DNA of 64,000 nucleotides. Origin: Gammaproteobacteria bacterium (lineage in GTDB: Bacteria; Pseudomonadota; Gammaproteobacteria; Steroidobacterales; Steroidobacteraceae). Position numbers and translations under genes: made by a program. The notes beneath the pieces were generated by a model. The model searched no databases and was not told the DNA's origin. It was given only the letters and a program-made list of their open reading frames with translations. The stretch lies in contig JBBISV010000003.1 in assembly GCA_037441085.1 (NCBI GenBank), positions 695 to 64,694 on the forward strand. Direction: 5' to 3'. Shown piece by piece: positions 3,487 through 31,508 of this stretch (position 1 is its first letter; each line of letters opens with the position of its first letter).

Positions 3487-5058
<1,572 letters not shown>

Positions 5059-5108: not shown

Positions 5109-5828
5109 CTAAGCGTCCGCGTCGAGCCAGGTTTCGAGCGCCGTCAGGACTTCCGCCGGGCGTTCCATCGTCGACATGTGCCCGCAGTCATCGATGGCCG
5201 CGAGCCGCGCACCGCTGATCACCGAAGCCATGTCCTGGTGACGCGCGAGCGGACTCCACGCGTCCTCGCGCCCGCAAAGAATCAGCGTCGGAACGCGGAT
5301 CCGCGCCAGCAGGCTGTCGGCCGACGGCCGGTCGAGCAGCGCACGGATCTGCGCCGCGAAGATCGCGACGCTTTTCCGCTCGATCATCGCAAGAATGGCG
5401 TCCATCAGCGGCGCATCCTGCAATCGTAGCGGATGAACCATGCCCTGCACCCACTCGAGTCCCATCGCGCGCATGCCGAGCCTTGCCGCCAGGTCGAGCA
5501 GCCGGTGGCGCTTGCGCGCTTCTTCCGCCCCGGCTTCACCTTCGGGCCGCGCCTGATAGCCCGTGTCCAGCAGCGCAAGCCGCGCGACGCGCTGCGGCGC
5601 GGCACGCAGGATCTCCAGCGCCACGCGCCCTCCCATGGAATGACCGGCCACGCAAAAGCGCGCCGGCGCCGCGGACAACACCCGCTGGGCCATCGCGGGA
5701 ATCGAATCCGACGCGTCATAATCGGCGACCACGCACTCGCGTCGGGTTGAAATGGCGGCGACCTGCCGCTCCCAGACCGCCGCGTCGCAGACCAGACCGG
5801 GGAGAAACACCACGGGTTCCCGCGTCAT
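5109..5828 (-). CDS. alpha/beta hydrolase fold protein
   Basis: 239 aa with the nucleophile elbow GHSMGG and a C-terminal DCGHM catalytic His region. It starts 4 nt after the stop of the upstream ligase, so it is probably co-transcribed. Confidence 0.85.
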   Translation of the reverse strand: MTREPVVFLPGLVCDAAVWERQVAAISTRRECVVADYDASDSIPAMAQRVLSAAPARFCVAGHSMGGRVALEILRAAPQRVARLALLDTGYQARPEGEAGAEEARKRHRLLDLAARLGMRAMGLEWVQGMVHPLRLQDAPLMDAILAMIERKSVAIFAAQIRALLDRPSADSLLARIRVPTLILCGREDAWSPLARHQDMASVISGARLAAIDDCGHMSTMERPAEVLTALETWLDADA

Positions 5829-7869: not shown

Positions 7870-10527
7870 TCACTCCTCCATTCGCATGCGCAGACTGAGA
7901 TACCACTCCCGCGGCGGATTGTAGTATCCGTCGATGAAGCCGGCTCCGTAATTCGGCTGCCCGGTGGTGACGTAGCGGTCGTCGGTCAGGTTCGTCCCCC
8001 CCACGGCGACGTCGTACTGCCCGGTGGGCGAGACGAAATGCAGGGAGGCATCGAGCATGCGGCTCGCCGGGCGCCACAGCTGCGGCGTGTTCAAGGAATC
8101 GTTGAACATGCTGGACGTGTACGTGAACACGGGCAGGAAGCGGATCTGGGCGGAGCTCGACAGCACGTAGTCGTACTCCGGATCGAACGTGAACTTCCAC
8201 TTCGGTGTCTTCGGCAATTTCGCGTCCAGCGGAGAATTGCCGTAGCCCGCCAGGCCGCATATCGGCGGACCCGCCGGGCACACGGTCGTGCCGTCCGGCA
8301 GCGCGTACTGCGGGAAATTCGCGTTCGGGTCGGCCGACGTGTAGTACGCGTCGAGGTAGGAGGCCGAGCCGTTGAGCCGCAGCCCCGTGTCGCCGACGAT
8401 CGACTCCACCTGGGCCTCCCAGCCCCTGATCTTGGCGTTGCCGGCGTTGGTGAGCACCGGCGAAATGCCGCGCTGGATGTTGAGCTGGATCCCGCTGAAG
8501 TTCGTGTCGAAGACGTCGGTATTCACGATCAAGTGCCGGTCGAACCACTCCGACTTCACGCCGAGTTCCCAGGACTTCGAGGTCTCCGGACCGTACTCGG
8601 CGTCTTTCGGCGTCGGCACGACGGCGGAAAGTCGCGTCGTCCAGCCCCCGGCCATGAAGCCCTTGCTCCAGCTGAGGTAGGCCATCACGTCGTCGTTGAA
8701 GTGAAACTGGATTCCACCCGTCGGATCGAAGATGTGCCACTGCTGGCTGTCCGGTATCGCCGGAAAGTAGCGCGTGTAGGGCTGCCCGGTGATCTGTGGG
8801 CCGAGAGTGGAACCCAGCGGGAACGAATTCAGATCGCTCTGACCGCCGAGGAAATACGCCTGGGCATCGGTGTAGCGTCCACCGACCGTGAAGCCCCAAT
8901 GCTTCGTCGGATTGTAATCCGCGTGGAAAAAGCCGGCATAGTCGACGTTCTGGGCGTCGTTCGAAACGTCGTACACCTGGAGCAGCCCCTCGAAGGGGAC
9001 ATAGTCATGCACGTAACCGGCTTCCTTGAAGTAATACAGGCCGGCGACATAATTCAGCTTGTCGTTCAGCGCGTGGCCGAGCAGTTGGAACTCCTGCGAG
9101 ATCTGCCACTGGTGCTGGTCGTCGGTTACCTCGAACATCGTCTCCGGCGTGCCGTCGAGGTCGGTGCCGATGTGCCAGCGCAACTGGCGATATCCGGTGA
9201 TCGATTTCAAGCTGAGACTGTCGTTGATCTCGTAGTCGCCGGTCGCGGAGAAGCCGAACACGTCATTGCGCGCAAAATTCGGTCCGCTGGCATAGGTCGT
9301 GCCGAGATTGCCGGTGGTCGATGCGGCGTTGCCGAGATAGATGCGCGGGTTGTTCGAGCCGAGATAGGCCGTGCCCGGATGGTTGTTGTAGTTGTACGGG
9401 CCCGGCGGCCCGCCGACGTAACCCGCGCCGAGCAGCGGAGCGCCGCCGATCGACAAGCCGGGCACCTGCGCACGCGGCTGCGCACAGGCCCCCGCGAACA
9501 GATTGTTCGGCGGCGAGCCGACGCCGAATACGCCGAAGGAGGCGCCGGCAATCGCCGCGGGCAGCGTCGCGGCGCTGTTGGCGATACACAGGTTGTAGAG
9601 CGTCGAGAACGTCGCGGACAGCAGGTTTCCCTGGAATGCGCCCAGCACGACGTTCGGCATGGCGGTCTGGTTCTCATGCGACCAGTCACCGGTGAACGTG
9701 AATTTCAGCCTGTCGCTCGCGAACCAAAGCACCTTCGAGCGCACCGTCGTGAGGCCGGTGCCGCCGTATTCGCTAGCGGTCTGATAGCCGGACTTCGGGT
9801 AGGCCGTCTGCGGATCCACCACGTACGGCGCCTGCCCGTATGGAGAACTCGTCGGGTACGGCACGACCCGCTGCCAGCCGTTCTGATTTTGACTGCCGAC
9901 GGTGACGCTCGCGAGCAGCTTGTCCTTGATGATCGGAATGTCGGCCGTAAATGCGATGTCACGGCGATCGAACCGTCCGGTGGTGACCTGGGCGATGAAT
10001 CGCGGCTTGTTCCCTGGAGTGTGGGTGATGATGCTGATCGCTCCGCCGATCGTGTTGGCCCCGAACAGCGTGCCTTGGGGGCCCTTCGCGATCTCCACGC
10101 GGTCGACGTCCAGGAGATTCACATTCGCGCCGACGGTGCGGGCCAGATAGATTCCATCGAGATAAACACCGACCGCCGGATTGGTGTTGATCGCGAAATC
10201 GCTCTGGCCGATGCCGCGAATGGATGCGGACAGCACCGAGTTGTCGCCCGAGAACGGCGAACCCGCATCCAGGGTGACGCCCGGCGTGAGCGCCGTGAGC
10301 GACTGCAGACTGGTCATTCCCTTCGCCTGCATCTGTCCGCCGGTGAAGGCGGTGATGGCGATCGGCACGCTCTGTATGTTCTGCCGGCGCTTCTGCGCGG
10401 TCACGACGATTTCCTGAAGCTGCGCCTGTGGCTGCGCCGCGATGACGGCATGAGACGCGGAAAGGTCCAAACCGCAGATTGCGAGCGACAGGAACGCCCG
10501 ATGGCGCATGGGTAGTCTCAATTTCAT
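7870..10527 (-). CDS. TonB-dependent receptor
   Basis: 885 aa from ATG 10527 (MKLRLPMRHRAFLSLAICG...), with a signal peptide and plug domain (LQEIVVTAQKRRQNIQSVPIAITAF, VEIAKGPQGTLFGANTIGG) followed by a long beta-barrel. AGGGGGA precedes the start. The upstream part of the listed 1023-aa ORF was rejected. Confidence 0.9.
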   Translation of the reverse strand: MKLRLPMRHRAFLSLAICGLDLSASHAVIAAQPQAQLQEIVVTAQKRRQNIQSVPIAITAFTGGQMQAKGMTSLQSLTALTPGVTLDAGSPFSGDNSVLSASIRGIGQSDFAINTNPAVGVYLDGIYLARTVGANVNLLDVDRVEIAKGPQGTLFGANTIGGAISIITHTPGNKPRFIAQVTTGRFDRRDIAFTADIPIIKDKLLASVTVGSQNQNGWQRVVPYPTSSPYGQAPYVVDPQTAYPKSGYQTASEYGGTGLTTVRSKVLWFASDRLKFTFTGDWSHENQTAMPNVVLGAFQGNLLSATFSTLYNLCIANSAATLPAAIAGASFGVFGVGSPPNNLFAGACAQPRAQVPGLSIGGAPLLGAGYVGGPPGPYNYNNHPGTAYLGSNNPRIYLGNAASTTGNLGTTYASGPNFARNDVFGFSATGDYEINDSLSLKSITGYRQLRWHIGTDLDGTPETMFEVTDDQHQWQISQEFQLLGHALNDKLNYVAGLYYFKEAGYVHDYVPFEGLLQVYDVSNDAQNVDYAGFFHADYNPTKHWGFTVGGRYTDAQAYFLGGQSDLNSFPLGSTLGPQITGQPYTRYFPAIPDSQQWHIFDPTGGIQFHFNDDVMAYLSWSKGFMAGGWTTRLSAVVPTPKDAEYGPETSKSWELGVKSEWFDRHLIVNTDVFDTNFSGIQLNIQRGISPVLTNAGNAKIRGWEAQVESIVGDTGLRLNGSASYLDAYYTSADPNANFPQYALPDGTTVCPAGPPICGLAGYGNSPLDAKLPKTPKWKFTFDPEYDYVLSSSAQIRFLPVFTYTSSMFNDSLNTPQLWRPASRMLDASLHFVSPTGQYDVAVGGTNLTDDRYVTTGQPNYGAGFIDGYYNPPREWYLSLRMRMEE

Positions 10528-10876
10528 CACGGTCAATCCCCCTGTTTCGGAATCAGTCGACCCGACCGCGCCATATGCTCCGCCCGGCCACCGGCGGGCT
10601 TCGATCGGGTGGCCCGCCTGGGAGCACCCGCCGAACGCGGTTCGTTGTCTCGACGCATATCGAGCGTAGCCAACGGCGACGGCCATTGCGCGGTTCACAG
10701 CGCAAGACTTATGAACTGACAGCGCAAGAGCGCGACGAGAAAGCCGTTGCCCGCGTGCAACATGCTGGCGCCGGACGGCGGCTTGCAGTCCGGGACCGAC
10801 CCCTTGCACGGTGGTCCGCGTGGATTGGGGCCGGGCGCGATTAGAATCCCTGCCGACGCCGGCGGGAGCCAAAGCC

Positions 10877-12697
10877 ATGGACACCAATTCCGATACCCGA
10901 GCCTTTCCGCTGCCGAGTTCGATCGCGGTCATCCCCGGCACGGAGCGCGCGCAGGCCGCTTATCCGTACACGATCCAGTTCGACGCCGCCGACGACGAGC
11001 GCTTCTGGTTCTACAACTCGATGCACTTCCCGGAGCCGATGTCCTGTTTCGACATGGTGACGGCCGAGGCCGCGTACTGCGCGCTCGGCGCCGCCAACAC
11101 GCGGGTCCATTGCCTCCCGACCACCCTCGGCATCGACCACCGGATCATCAACGGCCGGGTGTACATCGGCGGCAACGCCGTCACCGATCCTGAGGAGGTG
11201 GCCCGCCGCACCGGGGAATTCCAGAAACGCGCGTTCTACTACTACGAGAACTGGGAACCGTTGTACGCGGCCTGGAAACAGAAGATGCTCGCGCTTATTC
11301 ACGAAGCCGAAGCGCTGCCCAAGCCGCAGCTGCCGGAATTCGAACCCTTGGAAAACGTGCTCGCCGGCCGCGGCATTGCGTCCAATCACCGGCTCCTCGA
11401 GATCTATCAGAAGACGCTCGAGGGATATTTTCGGATGTGGCACCACCACTTCGAATTCCTGCTGCTGGGCTATGGCGCCTACCTCACCTTCTTCGCGTTC
11501 TGCAAGCGCGCCTTTCCCGAGATCTCGGATCAGACGGTCGCGAGAATGGTCGCGGGCATCGAAGCGGAGATCTTCCGACCGGACGAAGAACTGCGGCGCC
11601 TCGCGCGGCGCGCCGTCGAACTGCGCGTGGATCATGCGTTTCGCGACGGCGTCGGCGCCGACGCGGTGATTCGCTCGCTCGAGCAAGCCGGCCCACCCGG
11701 CGCGGAGTGGCTGCGGGAACTCGCCGTCTCGCGGGATCCGTGGTTCAACATCAACGTCGGCGACGGCTTCTACCATCACCACCGCTCCTGGAACGACGAC
11801 CTGTCGATGCCGTTCGCCGGACTGCCCGGGTACATCGAACGCGTGAAGGCCGGCGAATCCCTGCACCGGCCGTTCGAGCAACTCCAGGAAGAGCGCAGCC
11901 GCCTGATCGCCGATTACCGCGAACTGCTCGGCACCGACGAAGAACGCGCCGCTTACGACCAGATGATCAGCCTGGCGCATCGCGTATTCCCTTACGTCGA
12001 GGGCCACAAGTTCTATTGCGAGCATTGGTATACGAATCTGTTCTTCAACAAGATCCGCGAGTTCGGCGCATTGCTCGCCGAAAACCGCTTTTTTTCGGAT
12101 GCCGAGGACGTATTCCATCTGACCCACTACGAACTCGAGACGGCGATCATCGACCTGATGAACGCCTGGTCGACCGGCTCGGCGCCGCGCGGGCCTGCGC
12201 ACTGGCCGGCACTCGTCGCCGAGCGCCGCGCGGCGCTCGGCGTGTGGGCCGGGCGGCCGACCCCGCCTGCCCTCGGACCCGTGCCGGCGGTGATCGACGA
12301 TCCGGCGATCGTCATGCTCTGGGGCATTACGCGCGAGAGCCTCGACTCCTGGCTGCGGGCCGAAGACGAGGGCCCGAGCGACGAGATCCGTGGCTTTGCC
12401 GCATCCGCCGGCGTCGTCGAGGGCACCGCACGGGTGGTCAAATCGGTCGAGGACATCGGGCGGCTGCGCAATGGCGACATCCTGGTCTGTCAGATCACGA
12501 ATCCAACCTGGGCGCCGATCTTCCAGAAGATCGCCGGGGCGGTCTCGGACATCGGCGGTTCGATGAGTCACGCGGCGATCGTCGCGCGTGAGTACGGACT
12601 GCCGGCCGTGGTCGGCACGGGCAACGCAACCTCGCGCATCGAGGATGGCCGGCGCATCCGCATCGACGGCAGCCGCGGCATCGTGACGCTGTTATGA
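10877..12697 (+). CDS. PpsA-like subunit of a phenol-group kinase (C-terminal PEP-utilising mobile domain); AcvA/HpeH-type candidate
   Basis: 606 aa from ATG 10877, with GGGAG 8 nt upstream. The C-terminus carries the swivelling phosphohistidine motif GGSMSHAAIVAREYGLPAVVGTG. The N-terminal roughly 480 aa are unlike PEP synthase, as in phenylphosphate synthase alpha subunits. Confidence 0.85.
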   Translation: MDTNSDTRAFPLPSSIAVIPGTERAQAAYPYTIQFDAADDERFWFYNSMHFPEPMSCFDMVTAEAAYCALGAANTRVHCLPTTLGIDHRIINGRVYIGGNAVTDPEEVARRTGEFQKRAFYYYENWEPLYAAWKQKMLALIHEAEALPKPQLPEFEPLENVLAGRGIASNHRLLEIYQKTLEGYFRMWHHHFEFLLLGYGAYLTFFAFCKRAFPEISDQTVARMVAGIEAEIFRPDEELRRLARRAVELRVDHAFRDGVGADAVIRSLEQAGPPGAEWLRELAVSRDPWFNINVGDGFYHHHRSWNDDLSMPFAGLPGYIERVKAGESLHRPFEQLQEERSRLIADYRELLGTDEERAAYDQMISLAHRVFPYVEGHKFYCEHWYTNLFFNKIREFGALLAENRFFSDAEDVFHLTHYELETAIIDLMNAWSTGSAPRGPAHWPALVAERRAALGVWAGRPTPPALGPVPAVIDDPAIVMLWGITRESLDSWLRAEDEGPSDEIRGFAASAGVVEGTARVVKSVEDIGRLRNGDILVCQITNPTWAPIFQKIAGAVSDIGGSMSHAAIVAREYGLPAVVGTGNATSRIEDGRRIRIDGSRGIVTLL

Positions 12698-12710
12698 GCC
12701 GCGCCTGCCG

Positions 12711-13754
12711 ATGAGCTGCATCAGCTGGTTCGCGGACCTGAGCCTGAAGGACCGCCCCCACGTCGGCGGCAAAGGAGGCAGTCTTGGTGAACTGCGGCGG
12801 GCCGCGGTCGCGGTCCCACCCGGATTCGTGGTCAGGACCGCGGCGTTCGAGCGCTTTGTCGGGACGCTGGACGCCGATGAGCCGGTGCGGGCCCGGATCG
12901 AGGCGCTGAACGCCGACGACCTGCCGGCGATCGCCGCCTGTTCGGCGGCGTTGCGCCGTCGCTTCGAACAAACCGCCCTCCCATCGGACGTCGTCGAGGA
13001 AATTCTCGAGGCGCACGCTGCGCTGGGCGGACCGCAGGGAGCGGCCGCCGTGGCGGTTCGCTCCTCGGCCACCGCCGAAGATGCGAACGACGCAAGTTTC
13101 GCCGGACTGCAGGACACTTACCTGTGGGTCAGAAGCGCGGCCGAAGTGTTGCGCAAGGTCCGCAGCTGCTGGGCGAGCCTGTACTCGGTCGAAGCGATGA
13201 CCTATCGCCGGAACCGCGGGCTCGCGGAGGACTCGATGGCGATGGCGGTGGTGGTGCAGGTCATGGTCGACGCGCGCACCGCCGGCGTGATGTTCACCCG
13301 CAGCCCGACGACCGGCGACCGATCGGTGATCACCATCGAGAGCTCATGGGGTCTCGGCTCGGCCGTGGTGGGCGGCGAGGTGACTCCGGATCGATGGGTC
13401 ATTCACAAGGTCACCGGCGAGATTTCGGCGCGGGACATCTCGGACAAGGCGATCCGCCATGCGCCGGCCCCCGACGGCGGCGTCGAGACCGTGCCCGTCG
13501 ATGACGGCGCGCGCCGTGCTCCCTGCCTGAGCGATATGGAACTGCGACGCCTGTGCGACATCGGACGCCGGGTGGAGCGTCACTACGGGCGTGCTCAGGA
13601 CATCGAATGGGCGATCGAACGGTCGGACGGCGAGCTGTTCTTGTTGCAGAGCCGGCCCGAGACCGTGTGGTCCGCCAGGGAGGCCGTGCCGGTCGCGCGC
13701 GCCGCCGACAACCCGATCAGCCATGTGATGTCGATCTTTGGAGGCCGCACTTGA
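12711..13754 (+). CDS. PpsB-like ATP-binding subunit (PEP/pyruvate-binding ATP-grasp domain only); AcvB/HpeI-type candidate
   Basis: 347 aa with the N-terminal motif DRPHVGGKGGSLGEL typical of the PPDK_N nucleotide-binding domain. It lacks its own mobile or PEP domains. It starts 13 nt after the upstream stop. Confidence 0.85.
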   Translation: MSCISWFADLSLKDRPHVGGKGGSLGELRRAAVAVPPGFVVRTAAFERFVGTLDADEPVRARIEALNADDLPAIAACSAALRRRFEQTALPSDVVEEILEAHAALGGPQGAAAVAVRSSATAEDANDASFAGLQDTYLWVRSAAEVLRKVRSCWASLYSVEAMTYRRNRGLAEDSMAMAVVVQVMVDARTAGVMFTRSPTTGDRSVITIESSWGLGSAVVGGEVTPDRWVIHKVTGEISARDISDKAIRHAPAPDGGVETVPVDDGARRAPCLSDMELRRLCDIGRRVERHYGRAQDIEWAIERSDGELFLLQSRPETVWSAREAVPVARAADNPISHVMSIFGGRT

Positions 13755-14227
13755 CTCTCACGGCGAAGGACGTCGAGGAAATCACGCGGCTGATCGAGGA
13801 GTCGAGCTTCGATGAACTGCAGCTCGAGATCGACGGCATGAAACTCAGCCTGCGGCGCCGCGGCGCCGCGGCATGCGAAGCGGGCATCGCGCCGGCACCG
13901 GCGCCCCCGCCCGAACCTGAGCGTGCGCGACCGCCCGACGCGCCGCCCACCGTGACTCCCGGCGCGACGGACGCCGATATCCGGGCGGTGCCCGCGCCGT
14001 TGCTCGGAACGTTCTATCGGGCCCCCAAACCGGGCGCGGCGCCGTTCATCGAAATAGGCTCCCAAGTGACGGCGGACACCGTCATCGGCATCATCGAGGT
14101 GATGAAGCTCATGAACAGCGTGCGCGCCGGCGAGAGCGGCACGGTCGTCGAGATTCCGGCGCAGGATGGCGCGCTGGTCGAGTACGGGGAGACGCTGCTG
14201 CGCGTCCGCAAGCCCGTCGACACATGA
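13751..14227 (+). CDS. biotin carboxyl carrier protein (BCCP)
   Basis: 158 aa from TTG 13751, which overlaps the upstream TGA 13752-13754. It has a Pro/Ala-rich linker and a C-terminal biotinyl domain with EVMKLMN (Lys codon 14105-14107). The listed ORF start 13553 lies inside the previous gene. Confidence 0.8.
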   Translation: MTLTAKDVEEITRLIEESSFDELQLEIDGMKLSLRRRGAAACEAGIAPAPAPPPEPERARPPDAPPTVTPGATDADIRAVPAPLLGTFYRAPKPGAAPFIEIGSQVTADTVIGIIEVMKLMNSVRAGESGTVVEIPAQDGALVEYGETLLRVRKPVDT

Positions 14228-15597
14228 CGATCGGACGAATCTTGATCGCCAATCGCGGCGAGATCGCCGCGCGGATCATCCGAACCTGCCGTGCGCTCGG
14301 CATCGAGACCGTGCTCGCGGTCTCCACCGCGGATCGAGATTCCGTGCCCGCGCGGCTCGCCGACCGCGCCGTGTGCATCGGGCCGGGCCGATCGATCGAC
14401 AGCTACCTCAAGGTGGGCACCATCGTGCAGGCCGCGCTCGGCGTGCGCGCCGATGCGGTCCATCCGGGTTATGGATTCCTGTCGGAGCGCGCGGAACTCG
14501 CCCGCAGCTGCGAGGAGCACGGGCTGGTTTTCATCGGACCGCCGGCCTCACAAATCGCGGCGGTCGGCGACAAGCTGCGGGCGAGGGCCGAGGCGCTCGC
14601 CGCGGATGTCCCCGTGGTCCCTGGCGGCCCGGTGGCCGGAGTCGATGCGGCGCTGCAGCTGGCCGAACGCATCGGCACGCCGCTTCTCGTCAAGGCGGTC
14701 GGGGGCGGCGGTGGGCGCGGCATGAAGCTCGTGGAGCGCATCGAGGATCTCCCCGGCGCCCTCTCCGTCGCGGCCGCCGAGGCGGGTGCGGCTTTCGGCG
14801 ACACCAGGCTGTATCTCGAACGCTTCGTGACCCGCGGTCGCCACGTCGAAGTCCAGGTGCTCGGCGACGGCCGCGGACACGTCGTCCACCTCGGCGAGCG
14901 CGACTGCTCGGTTCAGCGTCGCTACCAAAAGCTCATCGAGGAGACGCCGGCGCCCGGACTGTCCGATCCCTTCCGCCGGCGCATTCACGCCGCGGCGGTG
15001 CGTTACGCCGAGCGGCTCGACTACCGGGGCGCGGGGACGATCGAGTTCCTGGTCGACGCCCGGAGCGAGTCGTTCTATTTCCTCGAAATGAATGCGCGCA
15101 TCCAGGTCGAGCACCCCATCACCGAGATGGTCACCGGAATCGACCTCGTGGCGGCGCAGATCGCGATCGCCGCCGGCGACGGCCTGCCGCTCACTCAGTC
15201 CGATGTGGTTTCGCTCGGCTGTGCGCTCGAATGTCGCGTGAACGCCGAGGACCCCGCGCGCGACTTTATGCCGAGCCCGGGGCGGGTGGACGCGGTGCAT
15301 TGGCCGACGGGGGACGGGATTCGCGTCGATACGCACATCGAGGCCGGATCGACCGTCCCGCCGTTCTACGACTCCTTGATGGCCAAGATCGTCGCGCACG
15401 GTGCGGATCGGTCCGCCGCCCTCGGACGCCTGCTACGGGCGGTCGAAGACACCTGGGTTCTAGGGGTGACGACCACGTTGCCGCTGCATCACGGGATTCT
15501 CACCGACCCGGAATTTCTGGCGGGCGGCGTCGACACGGGATTCCTGCCCCGCCACCTCGATCGGGCCCGCGCGCCGACGGAGACGAATCGTGGCTGA
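14224..15597 (+). CDS. biotin carboxylase (AccC-like ATP-grasp)
   Basis: 457 aa starting with the canonical ILIANRGEIAARIIRTCRALGIETV. GGGGRGM and EMNARIQVEHPITE motifs are present. ATG 14224 overlaps the BCCP stop (ATGA). Confidence 0.9.
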   Translation: MTIGRILIANRGEIAARIIRTCRALGIETVLAVSTADRDSVPARLADRAVCIGPGRSIDSYLKVGTIVQAALGVRADAVHPGYGFLSERAELARSCEEHGLVFIGPPASQIAAVGDKLRARAEALAADVPVVPGGPVAGVDAALQLAERIGTPLLVKAVGGGGGRGMKLVERIEDLPGALSVAAAEAGAAFGDTRLYLERFVTRGRHVEVQVLGDGRGHVVHLGERDCSVQRRYQKLIEETPAPGLSDPFRRRIHAAAVRYAERLDYRGAGTIEFLVDARSESFYFLEMNARIQVEHPITEMVTGIDLVAAQIAIAAGDGLPLTQSDVVSLGCALECRVNAEDPARDFMPSPGRVDAVHWPTGDGIRVDTHIEAGSTVPPFYDSLMAKIVAHGADRSAALGRLLRAVEDTWVLGVTTTLPLHHGILTDPEFLAGGVDTGFLPRHLDRARAPTETNRG

Positions 15598-17074
15598 AGT
15601 TCGCCTGGTCGAAACCTCGCTGCGCGACGGCAACCAATGCGTGTGGGCCGCGCTCGGAATCGACACGGCGAGAACCCTCGCGATCGCCGCCGTGATGGAC
15701 CGCGTCGGCTTCGAGGCGATCGACTTCACGACGTCCACCCACATGGGCGTCGCGGTTCGCTACAAGCGGGAGGACCCCTGGGAGCGCATCCGCCTCATGG
15801 CGCAGGCCGCGCCGCGTACGCCGCTGCAGTTCATGTCGACGGGCTTCCGTTTCATCTCGTGGGAGACGGCCAGCCCGGAATTCATGGAACTGGCCTTTCG
15901 GACGCTGGCGCGCGCCGGCATCCGCCGCTTCTGTCTGGCCGATCCGATGAATGACGTGGACGCCAACATGGCTTGCGCGCGCATGATCAAGCGCGTCGGC
16001 GGTGAGCGGGTGATCGCCGCGCTCGTCTTCACGATCAGCCCGATCCACGACGACCGTTACTACGCCGAGCGGGCGCGGACACTCGCCGCGTGCCCGTACA
16101 TAGACGCGCTATACGTCAAGGACCCCGGCGGACTGCTGTCGCCGAAGCGCGCGGCCACGCTGTTGCCGGCGATCAAGGCGCAGATCGGCGCAAAGCCGCT
16201 GGAGTTGCACTCCCACTGCACGATCGGACTGGCCGAGCACGTGTACTTGGACGCCCCCGACTACGGCGTGAGCGCGCTGCAATGCGCCTCCGGCGCCGCG
16301 GCGGACGGAATCTCCAATCCGCCGTCGGGACGGACCGTCGCCAATTTGCGCGCGCTCGGTCACCGCGTCGACGTCGACACCGACGCGCTCGCCGAAGTCG
16401 AGCAGTATTTCACGCGTCTGGCCGTGGCCGAGGGCCTCCCCGCCGGCGCGCCTCAAGGATTCGATGCGCGCTATCAACATCACCAGCTCCCCGGCGGCAT
16501 GGTCGGCACCATGCGGCGGCACCTGCGCGAAAGTCGCGTCGCGCATCTCGAAAGCGCGGTCATCGAGGAGCTCGGACGCGTCCGTCAGGAACTCGGCTGG
16601 CCGATCGTGATGACTCCGTTCTCGCAAGTCCTGCTCACGCAGGCGGTCATGAACGTCACCGGCCGGGAGCGCTATTCAATCGTCCCGGACGAGCTCATCC
16701 GCTACGCGCTCGGCCGGTTCGGCCGGCCCACCGTGCCGATCGACGCCAAGGTGATGGAGCGGCTCGAGTCGATGCCGCGCATGCGCGAGCTCGCGGCGGA
16801 ACCGCCGATGGCATCCGTCGAGGCGCTGCGCAAACGGCTCGGCGCGAGCCTCTCGGACGAGGAATTCCTGCTGCGGGCGACGATGCCGCAGACTCAGGTG
16901 GACGCCATGCGGGCGGCGGGACCGGCGTCGCGGCACTACGACCCGTCGGCCCGGCCGGCGATCGAACTGATCCGCAGACTCGCGCTGCGACGCGACATCG
17001 AACACATCTCGATCGACAAGCCCGGATTTCGCCTGAGCCTGCGTCGATCATCCGCGGCGCAGGCGCCGCGCTGA
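15590..17074 (+). CDS. carboxyltransferase subunit, pyruvate carboxylase B / oxaloacetate decarboxylase alpha type (HMGL-like TIM barrel), without its own biotinyl domain
   Basis: 494 aa with the N-terminal LVETSLRDGNQ motif, HSHCTIGLA metal site and PYC_OADA-like middle region. GTG 15590 overlaps the biotin carboxylase 3' end by 8 nt. Confidence 0.85.
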   Translation: MAEVRLVETSLRDGNQCVWAALGIDTARTLAIAAVMDRVGFEAIDFTTSTHMGVAVRYKREDPWERIRLMAQAAPRTPLQFMSTGFRFISWETASPEFMELAFRTLARAGIRRFCLADPMNDVDANMACARMIKRVGGERVIAALVFTISPIHDDRYYAERARTLAACPYIDALYVKDPGGLLSPKRAATLLPAIKAQIGAKPLELHSHCTIGLAEHVYLDAPDYGVSALQCASGAAADGISNPPSGRTVANLRALGHRVDVDTDALAEVEQYFTRLAVAEGLPAGAPQGFDARYQHHQLPGGMVGTMRRHLRESRVAHLESAVIEELGRVRQELGWPIVMTPFSQVLLTQAVMNVTGRERYSIVPDELIRYALGRFGRPTVPIDAKVMERLESMPRMRELAAEPPMASVEALRKRLGASLSDEEFLLRATMPQTQVDAMRAAGPASRHYDPSARPAIELIRRLALRRDIEHISIDKPGFRLSLRRSSAAQAPR

Positions 17075-17085
17075 AGAGGCACGAC

Positions 17086-17910
17086 GTGCGCAATCCGACC
17101 GGAATCGCAGGCTTGATGTTCGACGTCGACGGCACCTTGCTGTTGAGCGACCGCGCGCTCAGCGGCTACGAACTGTTGCCGGGCGCCATCGAACTGCTCA
17201 CTGCGCTGCGCGAACGCGATTTTCCGTTCGTGCTGTTCACCAACGGCAGCCACTACCCGCCGGCCGAGCAGGCGGCGAAGCTGCGCGCGTCGGGACTCCC
17301 CGTCGAAGATGCGCAGATGCTCACGCCCTCCGTGGTGACCGCGGACCACATGATGCGGGCCGGGTCCAGGCGGACGCTCGTGCTGGGGACGCGCGGAGTC
17401 GGACACGCCCTCGAGGCTGCGGGAATCGAGACCGTCCACCCGGGCGAGGCCGGAGCGACGGAGGTGGACGCCGTTTATGTCGGATGGCATCCGGAATGCG
17501 GTATGAAGGACATCGAGGCGGCGGCGGCGGCAATCTGGGCCGGCGCCAAGCTGTACGCGGCATCCGACGTCCCCTTCTTCGCGACGCGGCACGGGCGCAC
17601 GATCGGCTACAGCTGCGCGATCGTCGGCGCGATCCGGCGGCTAACGGGTGCGCGAGCCATCGTGACCGGCAAGCCCTCGCTGTACGCTCTGCGCTTGGTG
17701 GCAAAGCGACTCGGCATTCCGATGCGACGCATCGCCGTGGTCGGTGACGATCCGATCGTCGAGGTCGTGATGGCGCACCGCGGAGGGGCGACCGCGCTGG
17801 CGGTGACCACGGGCATGACCACGCACGAGCAGTGGAGTCGCGAAACCGGCGTGCGCAAACCGCATCGCGTGCTCGGTGGCCTGTCCGAGGTGCTGGCCTT
17901 TCTGCCCTAG
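17086..17910 (+). CDS. HAD superfamily subfamily IIA phosphatase (NagD-like); AcvF/HpeD-type candidate
   Basis: Motif I is GLMFDVDGTLLL, followed by VTGKPS and VVGDD motifs. I chose GTG 17086, 11 nt after the upstream stop, so that a beta-strand precedes DxDG. ATG 17116 is the alternative start. Confidence 0.8.
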   Translation: MRNPTGIAGLMFDVDGTLLLSDRALSGYELLPGAIELLTALRERDFPFVLFTNGSHYPPAEQAAKLRASGLPVEDAQMLTPSVVTADHMMRAGSRRTLVLGTRGVGHALEAAGIETVHPGEAGATEVDAVYVGWHPECGMKDIEAAAAAIWAGAKLYAASDVPFFATRHGRTIGYSCAIVGAIRRLTGARAIVTGKPSLYALRLVAKRLGIPMRRIAVVGDDPIVEVVMAHRGGATALAVTTGMTTHEQWSRETGVRKPHRVLGGLSEVLAFLP

Positions 17911-18914
17911 TGCGCGGCGGGGTCGCGGTAAGCGAGGGGCGGGATTCCGTAAGCCTGGCGGAACCGGCGTGCGAAGTGGCTGGGATCGAGGAAGCCGCAG
18001 CGCGCCGCGATCTCAACGACCGGCAGCTCCCGCAGCCTGCCGTCGGCGAGCAATTCCCGCGCATGCTCGAGGCGCGCGCGCATCAACGCCTCGATGAAAC
18101 TGGTGCCGGCGGCCGCGAACGCATAATGCACGCTGCGCACCGAAATACGAAGTTCGGCGGCCACCTCGCGCGGCGTCAACCCGGGTTCCGCCAGCCGACC
18201 GTGGACGATGCGCATCAGCTGTTCGTACCGCGATCGTCCGGCGGAAATCGGCCGATCGGGCCGGATCGCCAACCGCAGCAGGGCACCAATGTGCTCCGCG
18301 ACCTCGATCAGGGGCAACGGCAGCCCATCTCCCGGATCGACGTCAAGACTGGCGATTGCGGCGCACAACGCGGCGCTCCAACCGCCGCCGGAAACCAGCC
18401 GGGGAACCGCCGACTCCGGCTCGTTCACGTGACGCCTCAACCAGTCGTCGGGAAGTTGCAGGACCAAAGAGCGGGTCGGCTCGGGACACTCGACCTCATA
18501 GGGCTCCGCGCCGTTGATCAGCACGCACTCCCCGGGATATAGCGCGGTGGCTCGCCCACGCTGCCCGATCCGTGCCCGCCCGGCGCGCAGTTGCATCAGC
18601 AGGAACGCCGCCTGCCGGGTACCGGCGATGTGGGCATTGGTTCGGCGCACACGCTGGGCGTCCGCACAAATCAGATTGACGGTGCCGGGTCCGAAGTCGA
18701 CCTGGTCGAGACTCGCATGGAAACCCAGACGCGGCGAGGAGTCGATTTCCAGCTCGAGGAACCGATCACAGACGGTGTCCACCCAATAGGACAAGGCCCG
18801 GCGGGGATCGATGCCGTCGGTCGACCAATGACGTGCTTGAGCGACAGATTGCAAACTTCCCCCGTCACGCAATCGCCTGCCTACGGGGTATGCTGCCTCG
18901 CCGCGCCGGATCAT
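17907..18914 (-). CDS. AraC family transcriptional regulator (FeaR-like N-terminal ligand domain)
   Basis: 335 aa from ATG 18914 (MIRRGEAAY). C-terminal HTH: LTPREVAAELRISVRSVHYAF ... FLDPSHFARRFRQAYGIPPLAYR. It is convergent with the HAD gene and the two share a CTAG stop overlap. The longer listed ORF would run into the next gene. Confidence 0.8.
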   Translation of the reverse strand: MIRRGEAAYPVGRRLRDGGSLQSVAQARHWSTDGIDPRRALSYWVDTVCDRFLELEIDSSPRLGFHASLDQVDFGPGTVNLICADAQRVRRTNAHIAGTRQAAFLLMQLRAGRARIGQRGRATALYPGECVLINGAEPYEVECPEPTRSLVLQLPDDWLRRHVNEPESAVPRLVSGGGWSAALCAAIASLDVDPGDGLPLPLIEVAEHIGALLRLAIRPDRPISAGRSRYEQLMRIVHGRLAEPGLTPREVAAELRISVRSVHYAFAAAGTSFIEALMRARLEHARELLADGRLRELPVVEIAARCGFLDPSHFARRFRQAYGIPPLAYRDPAAH

Positions 18915-18969: not shown

Positions 18970-20394
18970 TCACGGCATATGATCGCCGCCCATCGCCACA
19001 TACCACTGCGCGGTGTCGAGATAGCGCTGCGCCGTGGCCCGGGCGTAGCCCAGACGCGCCTCGTGATAGATGCGCTGCGCGGCGAGCACCTGCAGATAGC
19101 TGCCGGCGCCGCCCGCATAGCCATCCTGCGCGAGCCGCAAGGACGCGCCCGCCGCATCGAGCGCGCGGCGCTGCGCGGCGACGAGCTCCGCATCATGGTC
19201 GAGTGCCTGCAGGACGTCGGCCACCTGATTGAAGGCGGTGAGCACGGTCTGACGGTACACGGCGAATTCGGCGCGGAACGCGGCGACCGCCGCCCGCCGT
19301 TGCGCCATCAGCGTTCCGCCGTGGAAGAGGGGCGCGCCCAAATTCGCGCCGAGCGTCCACAGTCCGCCCGTGCCATCGAACAGCGCACCCGCGGTCGCCG
19401 ACTGCCGTGACCAGGACGCGGAAATCGATATCTGGGGATACAGGTCGGCGGTGGCGATGCCGACGGCCGCGCTCGCCGCATGCAGCTGCGCTTCGGCCGC
19501 GCGAATGTCGGGTCTCGCGCGCACCAGCGCGGAGGGCACCACCACCGGCAGATCTGCGGGCAGGACGAGCGTGGTGAAGTCGAACGGCGGCGGCTGCCAG
19601 GTTCCGGCCGAGCGCCCGACCAACATCGCGAGCGCGTCGGCGGCGAGGACCCGCTGCTGACGCAGCGGCGGCAGCAAGGCCTCGTCGCCGGCGAGCTGGC
19701 TGCGTGCGCTCGCCAGATCGGCCGGCGCACCGATCCCGGCCCGGACCGACAACTCCACGAGCTCGACACCACGTCGGTCGGCGTCCAATACCGCTTCCGC
19801 CGCCACGCTCTGTTCGCGCGAGGCCGCCATCGCGATGGCCTGTGAGACGACATTGCCGGCCAGCGTGAGACGCGCCGCGTCGAGTTGCGCGCGCTGCACG
19901 TCGACCAGGGCGCCGCGCTGTTCGACCAGACGCCGGGAGCCGCCGAACACGTCCACACCATGGGCCACCGAGGCGCCGACGCTGTAGAGGTTGGACGTCC
20001 TCGCGCCCCCGATCGCGTTGTCACGGCCGCGGCTCGCCGCGGCGCCGAGATCCACCTGGGGATACAAGGCACCGCGCGCGGCGAGCACATATTGCCGCGC
20101 CTCGGCGAGCGTCGCGCGCGCCTGCTGCAGGGTGGGGCTGTCGGCGAGCGCCAGATCGACGGTTGCATCGAGCTGCGGCGAACGGAATTGCCGCCACCAT
20201 TGCGCGGCGACCGGCGCACCGACGCGGAATCTTTGTCGCGTGGCGCCCGCCCCGGCCGCGGGCGGCACCACCGGGTTCTGCGTATACCCTGTTTGAACCG
20301 GGCGGGCGGGCGGCGTGAAATTCGGGCTGGCCGCGCACGCGCCGAGGCCGAACGCGGCGAGCATCGCACCGGCGACCATCCGCCCCCTATTCAT
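18970..20394 (-). CDS. efflux outer membrane factor lipoprotein, NodT family
   Basis: 474 aa from ATG 20394 ([23 protein letters not shown], lipobox LGAC). The two OEP repeats are typical of NodT/OprM proteins. The start overlaps the macB stop (ATGAATAG). Confidence 0.9.
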   Translation of the reverse strand: MNRGRMVAGAMLAAFGLGACAASPNFTPPARPVQTGYTQNPVVPPAAGAGATRQRFRVGAPVAAQWWRQFRSPQLDATVDLALADSPTLQQARATLAEARQYVLAARGALYPQVDLGAAASRGRDNAIGGARTSNLYSVGASVAHGVDVFGGSRRLVEQRGALVDVQRAQLDAARLTLAGNVVSQAIAMAASREQSVAAEAVLDADRRGVELVELSVRAGIGAPADLASARSQLAGDEALLPPLRQQRVLAADALAMLVGRSAGTWQPPPFDFTTLVLPADLPVVVPSALVRARPDIRAAEAQLHAASAAVGIATADLYPQISISASWSRQSATAGALFDGTGGLWTLGANLGAPLFHGGTLMAQRRAAVAAFRAEFAVYRQTVLTAFNQVADVLQALDHDAELVAAQRRALDAAGASLRLAQDGYAGGAGSYLQVLAAQRIYHEARLGYARATAQRYLDTAQWYVAMGGDHMP

Positions 20395-22570
20395 AACGCA
20401 GCGCCTCGATCGGATTGAGGCGCGAGGCCTTGCGCGCCGGATAATAGCCAAAAAAGATGCCGACTGCGGCGGCGAACGCGAATCCGCCGACGACGGCGCC
20501 GGGCGACAACAGCGCGGGCCAGTGCGCCACGGCCGAGACGATCGCGGACACCGCGATGCCGAACAGGATGCCGGCGATGCCGCCCGTGACGCTGACGAAC
20601 ACCGCTTCCGCGAGGAACTGCAACAACACCTGCAGCCGCCTCGCACCGATCGCCATGCGCAGTCCGATCTCCCGCGTCCGCTCGGTCACCGACACCAGCA
20701 GGATGTTCATGATGCCGATGCCGCCCACCAGCAGCGAAATCGACGCCACGACCGCGAGCAGCAGCGCCATGATCCGCGCCGATCCTTCCGCGGTCTGCGC
20801 GATCTGGCTCAGATTGCGCACGGAGAAGTCCGGCGTCGTGTCCGCGCCGATGCGGTGGCGGCGCATCAGCGTGTCGCGGATTTGCGTGATCGCCGCTGAG
20901 ACCCGGTCCTGGCTCACGGCCTGCACGAATATCACGTTCACGTAACCGACGAGGCGCGGCGGGATGTTGTAGGGGTTTGGCGGCCCCGGGAACGCGGATG
21001 CCGTCGTGTTCACCGACACGCTCGCGCCCGACACCGTGGTCGTCGCGGCGTTTTGCGCCTGGCTGGGCGCCGCCACGCCGAGCACTTTTTGCTGTGCGGT
21101 GCTGAAGGGGATCATCACCAGGTCATCCTGGTCCTGACCGAACGGCGTCTGCCCCTTCGAGGCCAGCAGGCCCACCACCCGCACGCTGCGCCCCTTGATC
21201 AGGATGCGGGCGCCTATCGGATTTTCGTACGGCCCGAACAACTGCCGATAGACGGTCTGACCGATCACCGCCACCATGGCCCCGCCGGTCTCGTCGGCGC
21301 GCTCCAGCGTACGGCCGGCGGCGATCTGCCAGTTGGTCATCGGCAGGTAGCTCGGCGTGACCCCTTGGACTCCGGTGGACCAGTTCTGGCCGCCGTACTG
21401 AACCTGGCTCGCCTGCCGGATCATGTAGGCGATCTGCTCGACCGCCGGATCCTCGCGGCGCAATGCCTGGGCGTCGGCGACCGTCAGCGTGGAGGCGCTG
21501 CCGGAGCCGGCGCGCGCGCCGCTGCTGGTCATCGCCCCCGGCATGACCACGAGCAGGTTCGTGCCCAGGCTCTCGATCTGCTTGCGCACGGCGGCGTTGG
21601 CCCCCTGCCCGACGGCGACCATCGCGATCAGCGCCGCGACGCCGATGAACACACCGAGCATCGTGAGCGCCGAGCGCATCTTGTTGCGGTTGATGGCCTG
21701 CGCGGCCGCGGTCAGGATCATCGCGGCGAAGCCGAGGGAACGCGACGATCGCGGCGCGGCCCCGGGTGCCGGCGGCGGCGCCGTCGGTGGTGCGGGCAGA
21801 TCCGCCGCCCCCGCCGTCCGCGGCGCGGCGCCCGCCGGCGTCCGCTCGGTGCCGGCCGGCGTCGCATTGCGTTCATCGGAGATGATCCTGCCGTCGCGCA
21901 TCGTGATCACACGATCGGCGTAATCGGCCACGTCGCGCTCATGCGTCACCAACAGGATGGTGACGGCCTGCCGCTCGTTGAGCGCGCGCAGAGTCTGCAT
22001 GATCTCGTGCGACGTGCGCGTGTCGAGATTGCCGGTGGGCTCGTCGGCCAGCAGCAGGCTCGGGCCGTTGATCAGCGCGCGCGCGATGGCGACCCGCTGC
22101 TGCTGGCCGCCCGACAGCTGGCCGGGGCTGTTCTCCTCGCGACCCGCCAGCCCCAGTCTGTGCAGCGCGTCCCGGGCGCGCGCCGCGCGTTCGGAACGCC
22201 GCGCGGGTCCCGATGCGGCGTAGAACAGCGGCAGCGCCACGTTTTCCAGCGCGCTCGTGCGCGCAAGCAGGTTGAAGCTCTGGAACACGAAGCCGATGCG
22301 CTCGCTGCGGATGCGCGCGAGTTCGGGCTCGCTCAACCCCATCGCGTCCACGCCTTCGAGGAGGAATCGGCCGCCCGTGGGCCGGTCGAGGCAGCCGCAA
22401 ACGTGCATCAGCGTCGATTTTCCCGAGCCCGACGAGCCCATGATGGCGACGAACTCGCCGCGCGCCACAGTCAGGTCCACACCGCCGAGCGCGTGCACCT
22501 CGGTACCGCCAACATGATAGGTGCGCACCACATCCCGCAGTTCGATCACCGGCGCGGTCATGGCATGCAC
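20387..22570 (-). CDS. macB: MacB-type ABC transporter, fused ATPase and FtsX-like permease
   Basis: 727 aa with Walker [10 protein letters not shown], signature [15 protein letters not shown] and Walker [14 protein letters not shown] Pro/Ala-rich linker follows, then a 4-TM permease with a large periplasmic domain. Confidence 0.9.
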
Positions 22571-22579
22571 CCCACCTCG

Positions 22580-23833: not shown

Positions 23834-23868
23834 GCGAACCCCCGATTCGAAAAGCCGCGGGAGTTCGT

Positions 23869-23910
23869 TTATACGCAAGGCCCATGGAGCGCACCAGCCG
23901 CACTTATACG
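23869..23910. repeat. bipartite TTATACG ... CATGGA ... TTATACG element (second copy; first copy at 3419-3464)
   Basis: TTATACG occurs at 23869 and 23904 with CATGGA between them, in the 102-bp gap upstream of macA. The same arrangement lies upstream of the AraC gene at 3419/3458. The 11-mer TTATACGTAGC is shared exactly by both sites. Confidence 0.3.
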
Positions 23911-23935
23911 TAGCGAGCACGCGCCGGGCGCAGCG

Positions 23936-27096
<3,161 letters not shown>

Positions 27097-27100
<4 letters not shown>

Positions 27101-31505: not shown

Positions 31506-31508
31506 GAC

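Follow-up and report, generated by a model that had tools for sequence, protein, structure and literature searches.

We analysed a 64,000-nucleotide stretch of contig JBBISV010000003.1 (positions 695 to 64,694 of the forward strand, assembly GCA_037441085.1) from an uncultured, soil-type gammaproteobacterium of the family Steroidobacteraceae; the whole stretch is called the window below, and positions are counted from its first nucleotide. At 10877-17910 it contains six co-directional genes on the + strand (g1 to g6), which we propose to be an operon for the phosphorylation-dependent carboxylation of 4-hydroxyphenyl methyl ketones. From the list of open reading frames (ORFs) and the junctions read from the sequence, g1 (10877-12697, 606 aa) is the ortholog of AcvA/HpeH, the dikinase alpha subunit, and g2 (12711-13754, 347 aa) that of AcvB/HpeI, the dikinase beta subunit. 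They are followed by the orthologs of the biotin carboxyl carrier protein (BCCP) AcvC/HpeC (g3, 13751-14227, 158 aa), the ATP-grasp biotin carboxylase AcvD (g4, 14224-15597, 457 aa), the carboxyltransferase AcvE (g5, 15590-17074, 494 aa) and the HAD-IIA phosphatase AcvF/HpeD (g6, 17086-17910, 274 aa).

The six genes are translationally coupled. The g1 frame opens at GTG 10811, and ATG 10877 has a GGGAG 8 nt before it; g1 and g2 are spaced by 13 nt. At the g2/g3 junction (TTGA, 13751-13754) the start codon TTG 13751 overlaps the stop codon TGA 13752-13754, with a GGAGG 6 nt upstream, and at the g3/g4 junction (ATGA, 14224-14227) ATG 14224 overlaps the stop codon at 14225-14227. The GTG start of g5 at 15590 lies 8 nt inside g4, whose stop codon is at 15595-15597, and the GTG start of g6 at 17086 is 11 nt past the g5 stop codon (17072-17074). 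The initial annotation, made from the letters and their ORFs, had described six co-directional genes with coupled boundaries, and on direct reading every coordinate and overlap that it gave matched. Both the lengths and the N-termini of the Sphingobium sp. SYK-6 proteins are consistent with these start codons. The G+C content at third codon positions (GC3) was 0.84-0.86 in the coding frames measured (g1, g2, g4 and g5), like that of the neighbouring genes, and this value told the real coding frames apart from the long antisense ORFs, which are the usual artefacts of DNA with 67-69% GC. The six-gene arrangement is far beyond chance.

Pfam and NCBIfam upheld the domains proposed earlier for all six proteins, and the quoted motifs (GGSMSHAAIVAREYG, GGKGGSLGEL, EVMKLMN, SLRDGNQ and FDVDGT) were all found. 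In g1, Pfam recognised a PEP-utilizers domain at residues 531-601 (E 8e-25), and the N-terminal part of about 500 residues had no Pfam domain match. The protein combines a domain that binds the aryl substrate with a phosphohistidine swivel domain at its C-terminus, in which SDIGGSMSH carries the catalytic His. This motif fits the T/SxxGGxxxH pattern with Met at -2 described for this kinase type (PMC12167813), and the residue preceding the catalytic His is Ser in g1, CreH and PpsA and Cys in HpeH. The NCBIfam models NF006153 and NF006151 matched with 759 bits (cut-off 578) and 727 bits (cut-off 693), respectively. The match to the PRK08296 family was full-length (727-760 bits), whereas the match to rifampicin phosphotransferase and phosphoenolpyruvate (PEP) synthase reached 130 bits and was confined to the swivel domain of about 110 residues. 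We rejected the reading of g1 as a rifampicin-phosphotransferase-like resistance gene or a true PEP synthase; its similarity to these extends over the swivel part only. A grouping of the kinases with either of these enzymes had been named as the finding that would speak against the proposed system; the swivel-only matches, and the placement of g1 in the tree with carboxylase-linked kinases, showed otherwise. A PDB search with g1 returned matches to the swivel domain only and no HpeH or AcvA structure.

The g2 protein consists of the PPDK_N domain only (Pfam E 1e-102), a stand-alone ATP-grasp domain. Its best PDB match was 9GOJ (250 bits, 45% identity), which we take to be the crystal structure of HpeI. 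Thus g1 and g2 encode the alpha and beta subunits of a two-component dikinase as separate adjacent genes. Among the relatives of the kinase, a metagenome protein of 970 aa (P0122) carries an AcvA-like region (45% identity) at residues 362-962, behind an extra N-terminal part of about 360 residues; its size is that expected of a fused beta-alpha kinase, similar to the single-chain layout of rifampicin phosphotransferase. Four haloarchaeal plasmid matches (H7-H10; Haladaptatus, Natribaculum and Natrinema) are full-length proteins of the AcvA/PpsA family with about 37% identity.

The next three genes encode a three-subunit biotin-dependent carboxylase whose carboxyltransferase is distinct from PycB and OadA. 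The g3 protein has a Biotin_lipoyl domain in Pfam and scored 124 bits against the BCCP model TIGR00531 (cut-off 115); its EVMKLMN motif holds the biotinyl-lysine and is kept in AcvC and in the Rhizobium and Rhodococcus copies. In g4 we found Biotin_carb_N, CPSase_L_D2 and Biotin_carb_C, and in g5 an HMGL-like domain (TIM barrel) and PYC_OADA, followed by a family-specific C-terminal extension common to AcvE and the Rhizobium and Rhodococcus proteins. In g5 the metal-binding residues typical of the pyruvate carboxylase/OadA fold are kept: the Asp in LRDGNQ, the carbamylatable Lys in VKDPGG and the HxH in LHSHCT. The pyruvate-site motifs are altered in g5, with RDxHQS changed to RDGNQC, RGQNLLGY to TGFRFISWE and KDMAG to KDPGG; with the alternatives at single positions the altered motifs read RDGNQ(C/S), TG(F/M)RF(I/M)SWE and KDPGG. 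The g5 protein scored under the cut-offs of all PycB and OadA models in NCBIfam, and the PDB search with it returned PycB, OadA and 5S and nothing else. A carboxyltransferase grouping with oxaloacetate decarboxylases had likewise been named as contrary evidence; the sub-cut-off scores and a long branch with 100% support did not bear this out. We rejected a housekeeping acetyl-CoA carboxylase or pyruvate carboxylase as the identity of g3-g5, and we also rejected the hydantoinase-type acetone/acetophenone carboxylases, as no such domains are present. Directly after the carboxyltransferase gene lies g6, with Hydrolase_6 and Hydrolase_like domains (HAD-IIA) and the four HAD motifs DVDGT, TNGS, GKPS and GDD.

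From the report on Sphingobium sp. SYK-6, acvABCDEF (SLG_06540-06490) is an operon induced by acetovanillone and essential for growing on acetovanillone and acetosyringone, and it requires the upstream AraC-type regulator AcvR (Higuchi et al., bioRxiv 10.1101/2022.04.28.489975). In Rhodococcus rhodochrous GD02, HpeHI acts as the kinase on acetovanillone and 4-hydroxyacetophenone, HpeCBA carboxylates these ketones only when they carry the phosphate, and HpeD takes the phosphate off the carboxylated product (Dexter et al. 2022, PMC9618137). HpeE, an acetoacetyl-CoA synthetase homolog whose closest characterised homolog is the acetoacetyl-CoA synthetase AcsA2, and the CouO-like hydrolase HpeF then lead to vanillate or 4-hydroxybenzoate (PMC9618137). 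HpeHI is a two-component dikinase with an essential swivel-domain residue H581 (T/SxxGGxxxH, Met at -2), and the structure of HpeI has been solved (Dexter et al. 2025, PMC12167813). The account of Acv, Hpe and Xcc in the initial annotation agrees with these papers (bioRxiv 10.1101/2022.04.28.489975 and PMC9618137). We found no paper linking Steroidobacteraceae to the acetovanillone carboxylation pathway.

To compare the locus with these systems, reference clusters were collected by tblastn of PLSDB plasmids, and SYK-6 was reached through a Sphingobium nicotianae homolog and then its contig. As the Hpe reference we used an unannotated cluster from Rhodococcus sp. JS3073; its HpeI and the PDB 9GOJ chain share 97% identity. 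The results showed that g1 to g6 are 74.2% (over 600 aa), 64.0%, 51.2%, 68.7%, 70.7% and 57.4% identical to SYK-6 AcvA to AcvF, respectively, with window and SYK-6 lengths of 606/612, 347/347, 158/161, 457/454, 494/488 and 274/281 aa. Against the Hpe-type proteins of JS3073, identity was 46% for g1, 45% for g2, 54% for g4, 46% for g5 and 36% for g6, and about 64% for g3 over the C-terminal 70 aa only. A full hpeHICBADEF-type cluster on a Rhizobium leguminosarum plasmid gave 56%, 53%, 47%, 60%, 55% and 39% for g1 to g6. SYK-6 AcvA-F and the Rhodococcus Hpe-type cluster are themselves 46/45/55/52/47/37% identical. The identity of the window proteins to Acv is thus much above that of Acv to Hpe, which supports orthology with acvABCDEF. 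The order A-B-C-D-E-F (H-I-C-B-A-D in the Hpe nomenclature), as a co-directional unit, is identical to that of the SYK-6 locus (L087 in our locus collection). The proposal of an orthologous or sister system of Acv and Hpe is therefore borne out by 51-74% identity to AcvA-F and the same gene order.

The window and SYK-6 operons share the six genes, their order, orientation and catalytic motifs; a regulator with AraC_binding_2 and HTH_18 domains adjoins the operon here too, although it is a doubtful counterpart of AcvR. They differ in the host, a member of the Sphingomonadaceae for SYK-6 and of a gammaproteobacterial Steroidobacteraceae lineage here, and in the position of the regulator: AcvR is upstream and co-directional, whereas the window regulator, 31% identical to it, is downstream and convergent. 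In SYK-6, VceA and VceB are encoded elsewhere, while in the window the operon is clustered with genes for an HpeE-type ligase, for an alpha/beta hydrolase and for a TonB receptor, and with a LigM-type gene; the TonB receptor near the SYK-6 locus has no significant similarity to that of the window. The Hpe system of GD02, for which the biochemical mechanism is best established, is alike in its six syntenic components, in the swivel-His motif with Met at -2 and in the HpeE-type ligase beside the cluster. In the window, however, the ligase gene is not downstream but belongs to a separate, divergent operon encoded on the other strand, and there is no HpeF-type amidohydrolase.

More distant systems share single modules with the locus. 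XccABC of Aromatoleum aromaticum EbN1, reported to be 55/63/45% identical to AcvE/D/C, is a homologous biotin carboxylase of three components, clustered with hpeHI homologs (bioRxiv 10.1101/2022.04.28.489975), but its reported order is xccA-xccC-xccB and it belongs to an anaerobic 4-ethylphenol/4-hydroxyacetophenone pathway. MarK of Novosphingobium aromaticivorans is a single, unrelated kinase of the UPF0261 family that gives ADP as product and replaces AcvAB (PMC12624787); the MarK-AcvCDEF system uses the same carboxylase and phosphatase module on phosphorylated acetovanillone, whereas the window kinase is of the AcvAB type. PpsAB(C) of Thauera and Azoarcus and the 4-cresol kinase CreHI of Corynebacterium and Rhodococcus resemble g1/g2 as two-component dikinases with swivel-His chemistry. 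They fall in separate clades. Their partners are UbiD-type ppcBDAG or genes for a P450, a ferredoxin and an HD-phosphohydrolase, and in no case a biotin carboxylase together with a HAD phosphatase. The plasmid of Azoarcus sp. KH32C, with ppsABC and ppcBDAG, served as the Pps reference, and on two Rhodococcus plasmids creIH stands beside genes for P450, ferredoxin and HD-phosphohydrolase.

This likeness raises the alternative that g1 and g2 are a PpsAB or CreHI kinase with no relation to the acetyl-CoA or pyruvate carboxylase and the sugar phosphatase encoded beside it, so that the six genes would not form one pathway. Indeed, g1/g2 are 43/44% identical to PpsA/B and 42/43% to CreH/I, only slightly below the 46/45% to the Rhodococcus Hpe-type proteins, and g4 passes the generic AccC subfamily model. 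Against this stand the 64-74% identity to AcvA/B, the position of g1 outside the Pps and Cre clades, the overlaps of start and stop codons, the recurrence of the six-gene order in 42 of 64 loci across four phyla, and the carboxyltransferase that scores under all PycB/OadA cut-offs and has altered substrate-site motifs. Moreover, no UbiD-type ppc, cre P450 or ferredoxin genes lie nearby, and the Pfam scan detected no UbiD, UbiX or CBS genes near the cluster. We consider this alternative very improbable, and synteny and phylogeny effectively refute it.

For the phylogeny, neighbour-joining trees with 100 bootstraps were built; SYK-6 AcvA itself was not in the g1 tree, and diverse library homologs of g1 served as unlabelled leaves. 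In this tree g1 falls in a clade with 100% support formed by Steroidobacteraceae, Acidobacteriota and Sphingomonadales; the Sphingobium nicotianae protein within it shares 84% identity with SYK-6 AcvA. Its sister (100%) is a clade of Rhizobium plasmid, Burkholderiales and Actinomycetota proteins, and next outward, at supports of 96% and 61%, are Thermomicrobium and the Rhodococcus Hpe branch. The kinases PpsA (phenol) and CreH (cresol) are outside the g1 clade, and the g2 tree is congruent. The phylogeny of the kinase subunits, which had been suggested as a check, thus groups g1 with carboxylase-linked kinases. The g5 clade is separated by a long branch with 100% support from PycB (5KS8), OadA (2NX9) and the transcarboxylase 5S subunit (1S3H).

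To follow the distribution of the operon, we scanned one genome per GTDB species with an 8-sequence alignment as query and took the best 80 relatives of g1 from the 600 top-scoring candidates, among which SYK-6, EbN1 and Thauera were not represented; the loci are cited below by L numbers. The closest copy, 96% identical, is in the metagenome-assembled genome (MAG) Proteobacteria bacterium BP6.bin97, whose DNA is 92.6% identical over 4 kb, and copies of 77-85% are in Steroidobacteraceae MAGs. MAGs labelled Acidobacteriota (L021, L024-L031) gave 75-78% and include a closed 3.78-Mb chromosome (L025, OY970253.1). They were followed by Sphingomonadales isolates at 69-76% (Altericroceibacterium, Croceibacterium, Sphingobium nicotianae, Aurantiacibacter and Altererythrobacter), and by Burkholderiales, Rhizobiales and Actinomycetota (Blastococcus and Streptosporangiaceae) at 54-61%. 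By tblastn of the window proteins, g1-g6 were colinear in 42 of the 64 loci with enough sequence. In the protein database the best 120 g1 clusters were all at least 80% identical, and hundreds of close homologs come from soil metagenomes. The homologs carry names such as "pyruvate, water dikinase", "PEP-utilizing enzyme", "acetyl-CoA carboxylase biotin carboxylase subunit", "hypothetical protein" and "HAD family hydrolase", in keeping with the earlier expectation that routine annotation fragments the pathway.

Two further features of the relatives were observed. First, acvD is missing from many otherwise colinear clusters, both in Sphingomonadales (L033, L037, L038, L040, L042-L046 and L049) and elsewhere (L017, L024 and L054). 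In 10 of 15 Sphingomonadales loci the BCCP gene is directly followed by the carboxyltransferase gene, with no biotin carboxylase homolog within 10 kb; for such clusters a biotin carboxylase would have to be supplied in trans, even though SYK-6 cannot do without acvD. Second, a Steroidobacteraceae MAG (MGr3G3H3I bin 42, L055) has a cluster of the other clade, with 59% AcvA identity, which groups with Burkholderiales and Actinomycetota, so that Steroidobacteraceae hold both cluster types.

The Acidobacteriota AcvA copies are closer to g1 than the Sphingomonadales copies and form a clade with 100% support with the Steroidobacteraceae copies, which implies horizontal transfer across phyla. This could also be taken to mean that the operon is a decaying or silent horizontally acquired remnant, functionless now; the close copies in other phyla (Acidobacteriota 75-78%, Sphingomonadales 69-76%) and the many related clusters lacking a biotin carboxylase gene would fit such a history. 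In the window, however, the six ORFs are full length relative to AcvA-F and their catalytic motifs are all intact, GC3 (0.84-0.86) is like that of the neighbours, and the Pfam scan of the window showed neither transposases nor integrases. The contig with 92.6% identical DNA (protein identity 96% for g1 and 92% for g2) also keeps both ORFs open. A functionless remnant is hence hardly credible to us.

Upstream of g1, across a gap of 349 bp, an apparent three-gene operon on the - strand runs divergently, with internal gaps of 45 nt and 4 nt. Its first gene (7870-10527) encodes a TonB-dependent outer-membrane receptor with Plug and TonB_dep_Rec_b-barrel domains, and the start ATG 10527 gives a signal-peptide-like N-terminus, MKLRLPMRHRAFLSLAICG. 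In 7 of the 21 loci most closely related, homologs of this receptor (61-73%) lie beside the acv cluster, and it is a candidate uptake channel for the aromatic substrate. The second gene (5833-7824) encodes an HpeE-type enzyme of the acetoacetate-CoA-ligase family (NF002937, 908 bits, cut-off 639; PDB 4WD1, 728 bits) that is 46% identical to the HpeE-position gene of JS3073 and 51% to its Rhizobium plasmid counterpart, with homologs (55-79%) adjoining acv/hpe-type clusters in many loci. An HpeE-type AMP-forming ligase is thus encoded with the cluster, as in the Hpe pathway, but in the divergent operon; we propose it as the aroylacetate (vanilloylacetate) CoA ligase.

The third gene (5109-5828), 4 nt downstream of the ligase gene, encodes a PcaD-like alpha/beta hydrolase (Abhydrolase_6/1) with a GHSMGG nucleophile elbow; its best NCBIfam matches were PcaD models at 80-96 bits, far under their cut-offs. 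The ligase-hydrolase pair is kept in one genome locus (L017) and in L089 (87%), L090 (68%) and L091 (59%), and among the 80 metagenome loci around hydrolase relatives, L104 (59%) has the ligase nearby on the opposite strand. Hydrolase homologs at 50-55% in these 80 loci are mostly in other contexts, and a few adjoin LigM/DesA-like genes. The three closest Steroidobacteraceae loci with flanks (L008, L009 and L011) have an HpeF-type amidohydrolase gene directly upstream of acvA. We hypothesize, with limited support, that the PcaD-like protein is a candidate aroylacetyl-CoA hydrolase/thioesterase substituting for HpeF/VceB.

The divergent intergenic region (10528-10876, 349 bp), between the TonB receptor gene and g1, is the presumed control region. 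In this region ACAGCGCAAGA forms an exact direct repeat of 11 nt (10697-10707 and 10719-10729), whose copies begin 22 nt apart and lie some 150-180 nt upstream of where g1 starts. L007, the 92.6%-identical MAG contig, retains the repeat with one mismatch, but its sequence is too close to show selection; the repeat may be an AraC-type operator. A sigma-70 scan gave no consensus in the intergenic region, and terminator-like matches were at chance level.

Downstream of the operon, the gene at 17907-18854 (- strand) encodes an AraC/FeaR-type regulator (AraC_binding_2 and HTH_18), which is convergent with g6 so that the two stops overlap by 4 nt. Its ORF is open to 19196, with TTG 18854 as the likely start and ATG 18914 as an alternative. 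It is a distant homolog of SYK-6 AcvR (31.3% identity, E 7e-39), and homologs of 52-61% occupy the same convergent position in three Steroidobacteraceae loci (L008, L011 and L035). A regulator of the AraC type, similar to AcvR, probably activates the operon, and this protein is a candidate for that role. A second AraC/FeaR-type regulator (2475-3371, - strand; FeaR model NF007243, 126 bits, under the cut-off; 28% identical to AcvR) probably starts at ATG 3371, after a G-rich ribosome-binding site, and is divergent from a LigM-type gene.

This LigM-type gene (3658-5058, + strand), convergent with the ligase/hydrolase/TonB operon, encodes a predicted tetrahydrofolate-dependent vanillate/3-O-methylgallate O-demethylase: the NCBIfam equivalog NF047885 matched with 733 bits (cut-off 580), the DesA model with 656 bits, under its cut-off of 800, and the PDB entries 5TL4/5X1I (SYK-6 LigM) with 647 bits. 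The initial annotation covered 10877-17910 and did not include the flanking LigM-type demethylase, HpeE-type ligase, TonB receptor and regulators. The rest of the window holds efflux systems, a sulfatase and a sulfotransferase, and sugar-acid genes. Within the efflux block at 18970-33499 (outer-membrane efflux protein, MacB-type ABC, HlyD and AcrB), a 1136-aa ORF at 23936-27346 (- strand) joins P-type ATPase domains (E1-E2_ATPase, Hydrolase and Cation_ATPase_C) to a C-terminal PAP2 phosphatase, an unusual fusion unrelated to the acv operon.

The flanking genes also bear on the substrate. The same machinery might serve mainly another 4-hydroxyaryl ketone, such as 4-hydroxyacetophenone from 4-ethylphenol as in the Xcc pathway of Aromatoleum, a propiovanillone-type ketone or a plant or microbial acetophenone, with acetovanillone as a side substrate. 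HpeCBA prefers 4-phosphoacetophenone about 10-fold over 4-phosphoacetovanillone (PMC9618137), several phenols are phosphorylated by HpeHI and AcvAB (PMC12624787, PMC12167813), and Xcc is linked to 4-hydroxyacetophenone (bioRxiv 10.1101/2022.04.28.489975). On the other hand, AcvA-F, whose substrates are acetovanillone and acetosyringone, resemble the window proteins far more closely than Hpe does, and the Pfam scan of the window revealed no pobA-like 4-hydroxybenzoate hydroxylase. The LigM-type gene lies 5.8 kb upstream in the same island, and LigM-like genes stand by related clusters in 6 of 21 close loci; the gene and its recurrence indicate methoxylated products. Another main substrate is therefore judged unlikely. 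From the analogy with Acv and Hpe, acetovanillone is likely a substrate, and acetosyringone and/or 4-hydroxyacetophenone probably are as well.

Taken together, we put the probability at roughly 85% that the six genes are the ortholog of acvABCDEF, syntenic with hpeHICBAD, and constitute a module that converts a 4-hydroxyphenyl methyl ketone to the aroylacetate. In the proposed mechanism, the ketone would be taken up through the TonB receptor, as gene context suggests. The ATP-grasp protein g2 would then bind ATP and pass the beta-phosphate to the swivel-domain His of g1 (SDIGGSMSH), and g1 would phosphorylate the phenolic 4-OH of the bound ketone, ATP being converted to AMP and Pi. Next, g4 is predicted to carboxylate the biotin of g3 with ATP and bicarbonate, and g5 to move the carboxyl group to the acetyl methyl of the phospho-ketone, before g6 would dephosphorylate the carboxylated product to vanilloylacetate or an analogue. 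Carboxylation is placed before dephosphorylation because of the purified-enzyme data on Hpe (PMC9618137). The HpeE-type ligase would form the aroylacetyl-CoA, from which vanillate and acetyl-CoA would be released by the adjacent alpha/beta hydrolase or by an HpeF/VceB-type enzyme encoded elsewhere, and the LigM-type enzyme would demethylate vanillate to protocatechuate. The kinase, carboxylase and phosphatase steps are predicted from strong orthology with tested enzymes, and uptake, CoA activation, cleavage and O-demethylation are plausibly assigned from gene context.

Several points weigh against this interpretation. Substrate specificity is not readable from sequence; HpeCBA favours the 4-hydroxyacetophenone derivative (see above), whereas AcvAB prefers acetosyringone (PMC12624787). 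The two published studies disagree on the order of steps: dephosphorylation was proposed before carboxylation in SYK-6, yet AcvCDE did not carboxylate the free ketone (bioRxiv 10.1101/2022.04.28.489975). No HpeF/CouO-type amidohydrolase, the beta-ketoacyl-CoA hydrolase of the Hpe pathway, was found in the 64-kb window by tblastn with the Rhizobium HpeF-position protein, and the Pfam scan found no protocatechuate ring-cleavage genes within the 64 kb. The pairing of ligase and hydrolase is limited to close relatives (only 4 of the 80 metagenome loci). The regulator shares only 31% identity with AcvR and, lying downstream in the convergent orientation, also differs from it in position. Finally, the trees are distance-based and not maximum-likelihood, and the 61% support for the placement of the Rhodococcus Hpe branch is weak.

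The host lineage is new for a known pathway, while the chemistry is not new. What is mildly new is the abundance of the operon in soil metagenomes and in Steroidobacteraceae and Acidobacteriota MAGs, the mosaic layout (an Hpe-type ligase, LigM and a TonB receptor added to an Acv core) and a possible non-homologous hydrolase for the last step. More tentatively, and with odds clearly against it, the island could be a third, mosaic solution of the lower pathway, in which an Acv-type core is combined with an HpeE-type ligase, a dedicated ketone-importing TonB receptor and the PcaD-like hydrolase (5109-5828), the latter replacing HpeF and VceA/VceB in cleaving aroylacetyl-CoA.

When lignin is depolymerised oxidatively or by base catalysis, acetovanillone and acetosyringone arise as major products. 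Their degradation pathway was described in 2022 from two cultured strains and then reported in relatively few bacteria; acvAB/hpeHI were colocalised with acvCDEF in 25 of 17,510 representative genomes (PMC12624787). Routine gene names (PEP synthase, acetyl-CoA carboxylase, hypothetical protein and HAD hydrolase) hide the pathway, and the clusters offer new enzyme variants for lignin-valorisation strains. The colinear clusters in Steroidobacteraceae, Acidobacteriota, Sphingomonadales, Burkholderiales and Actinomycetota widen its likely ecological reach. If the mosaic solution were true, uncultured Steroidobacteraceae and Acidobacteriota, and not a few cultured sphingomonads and rhodococci, would be the major soil sinks of lignin-derived aryl methyl ketones.

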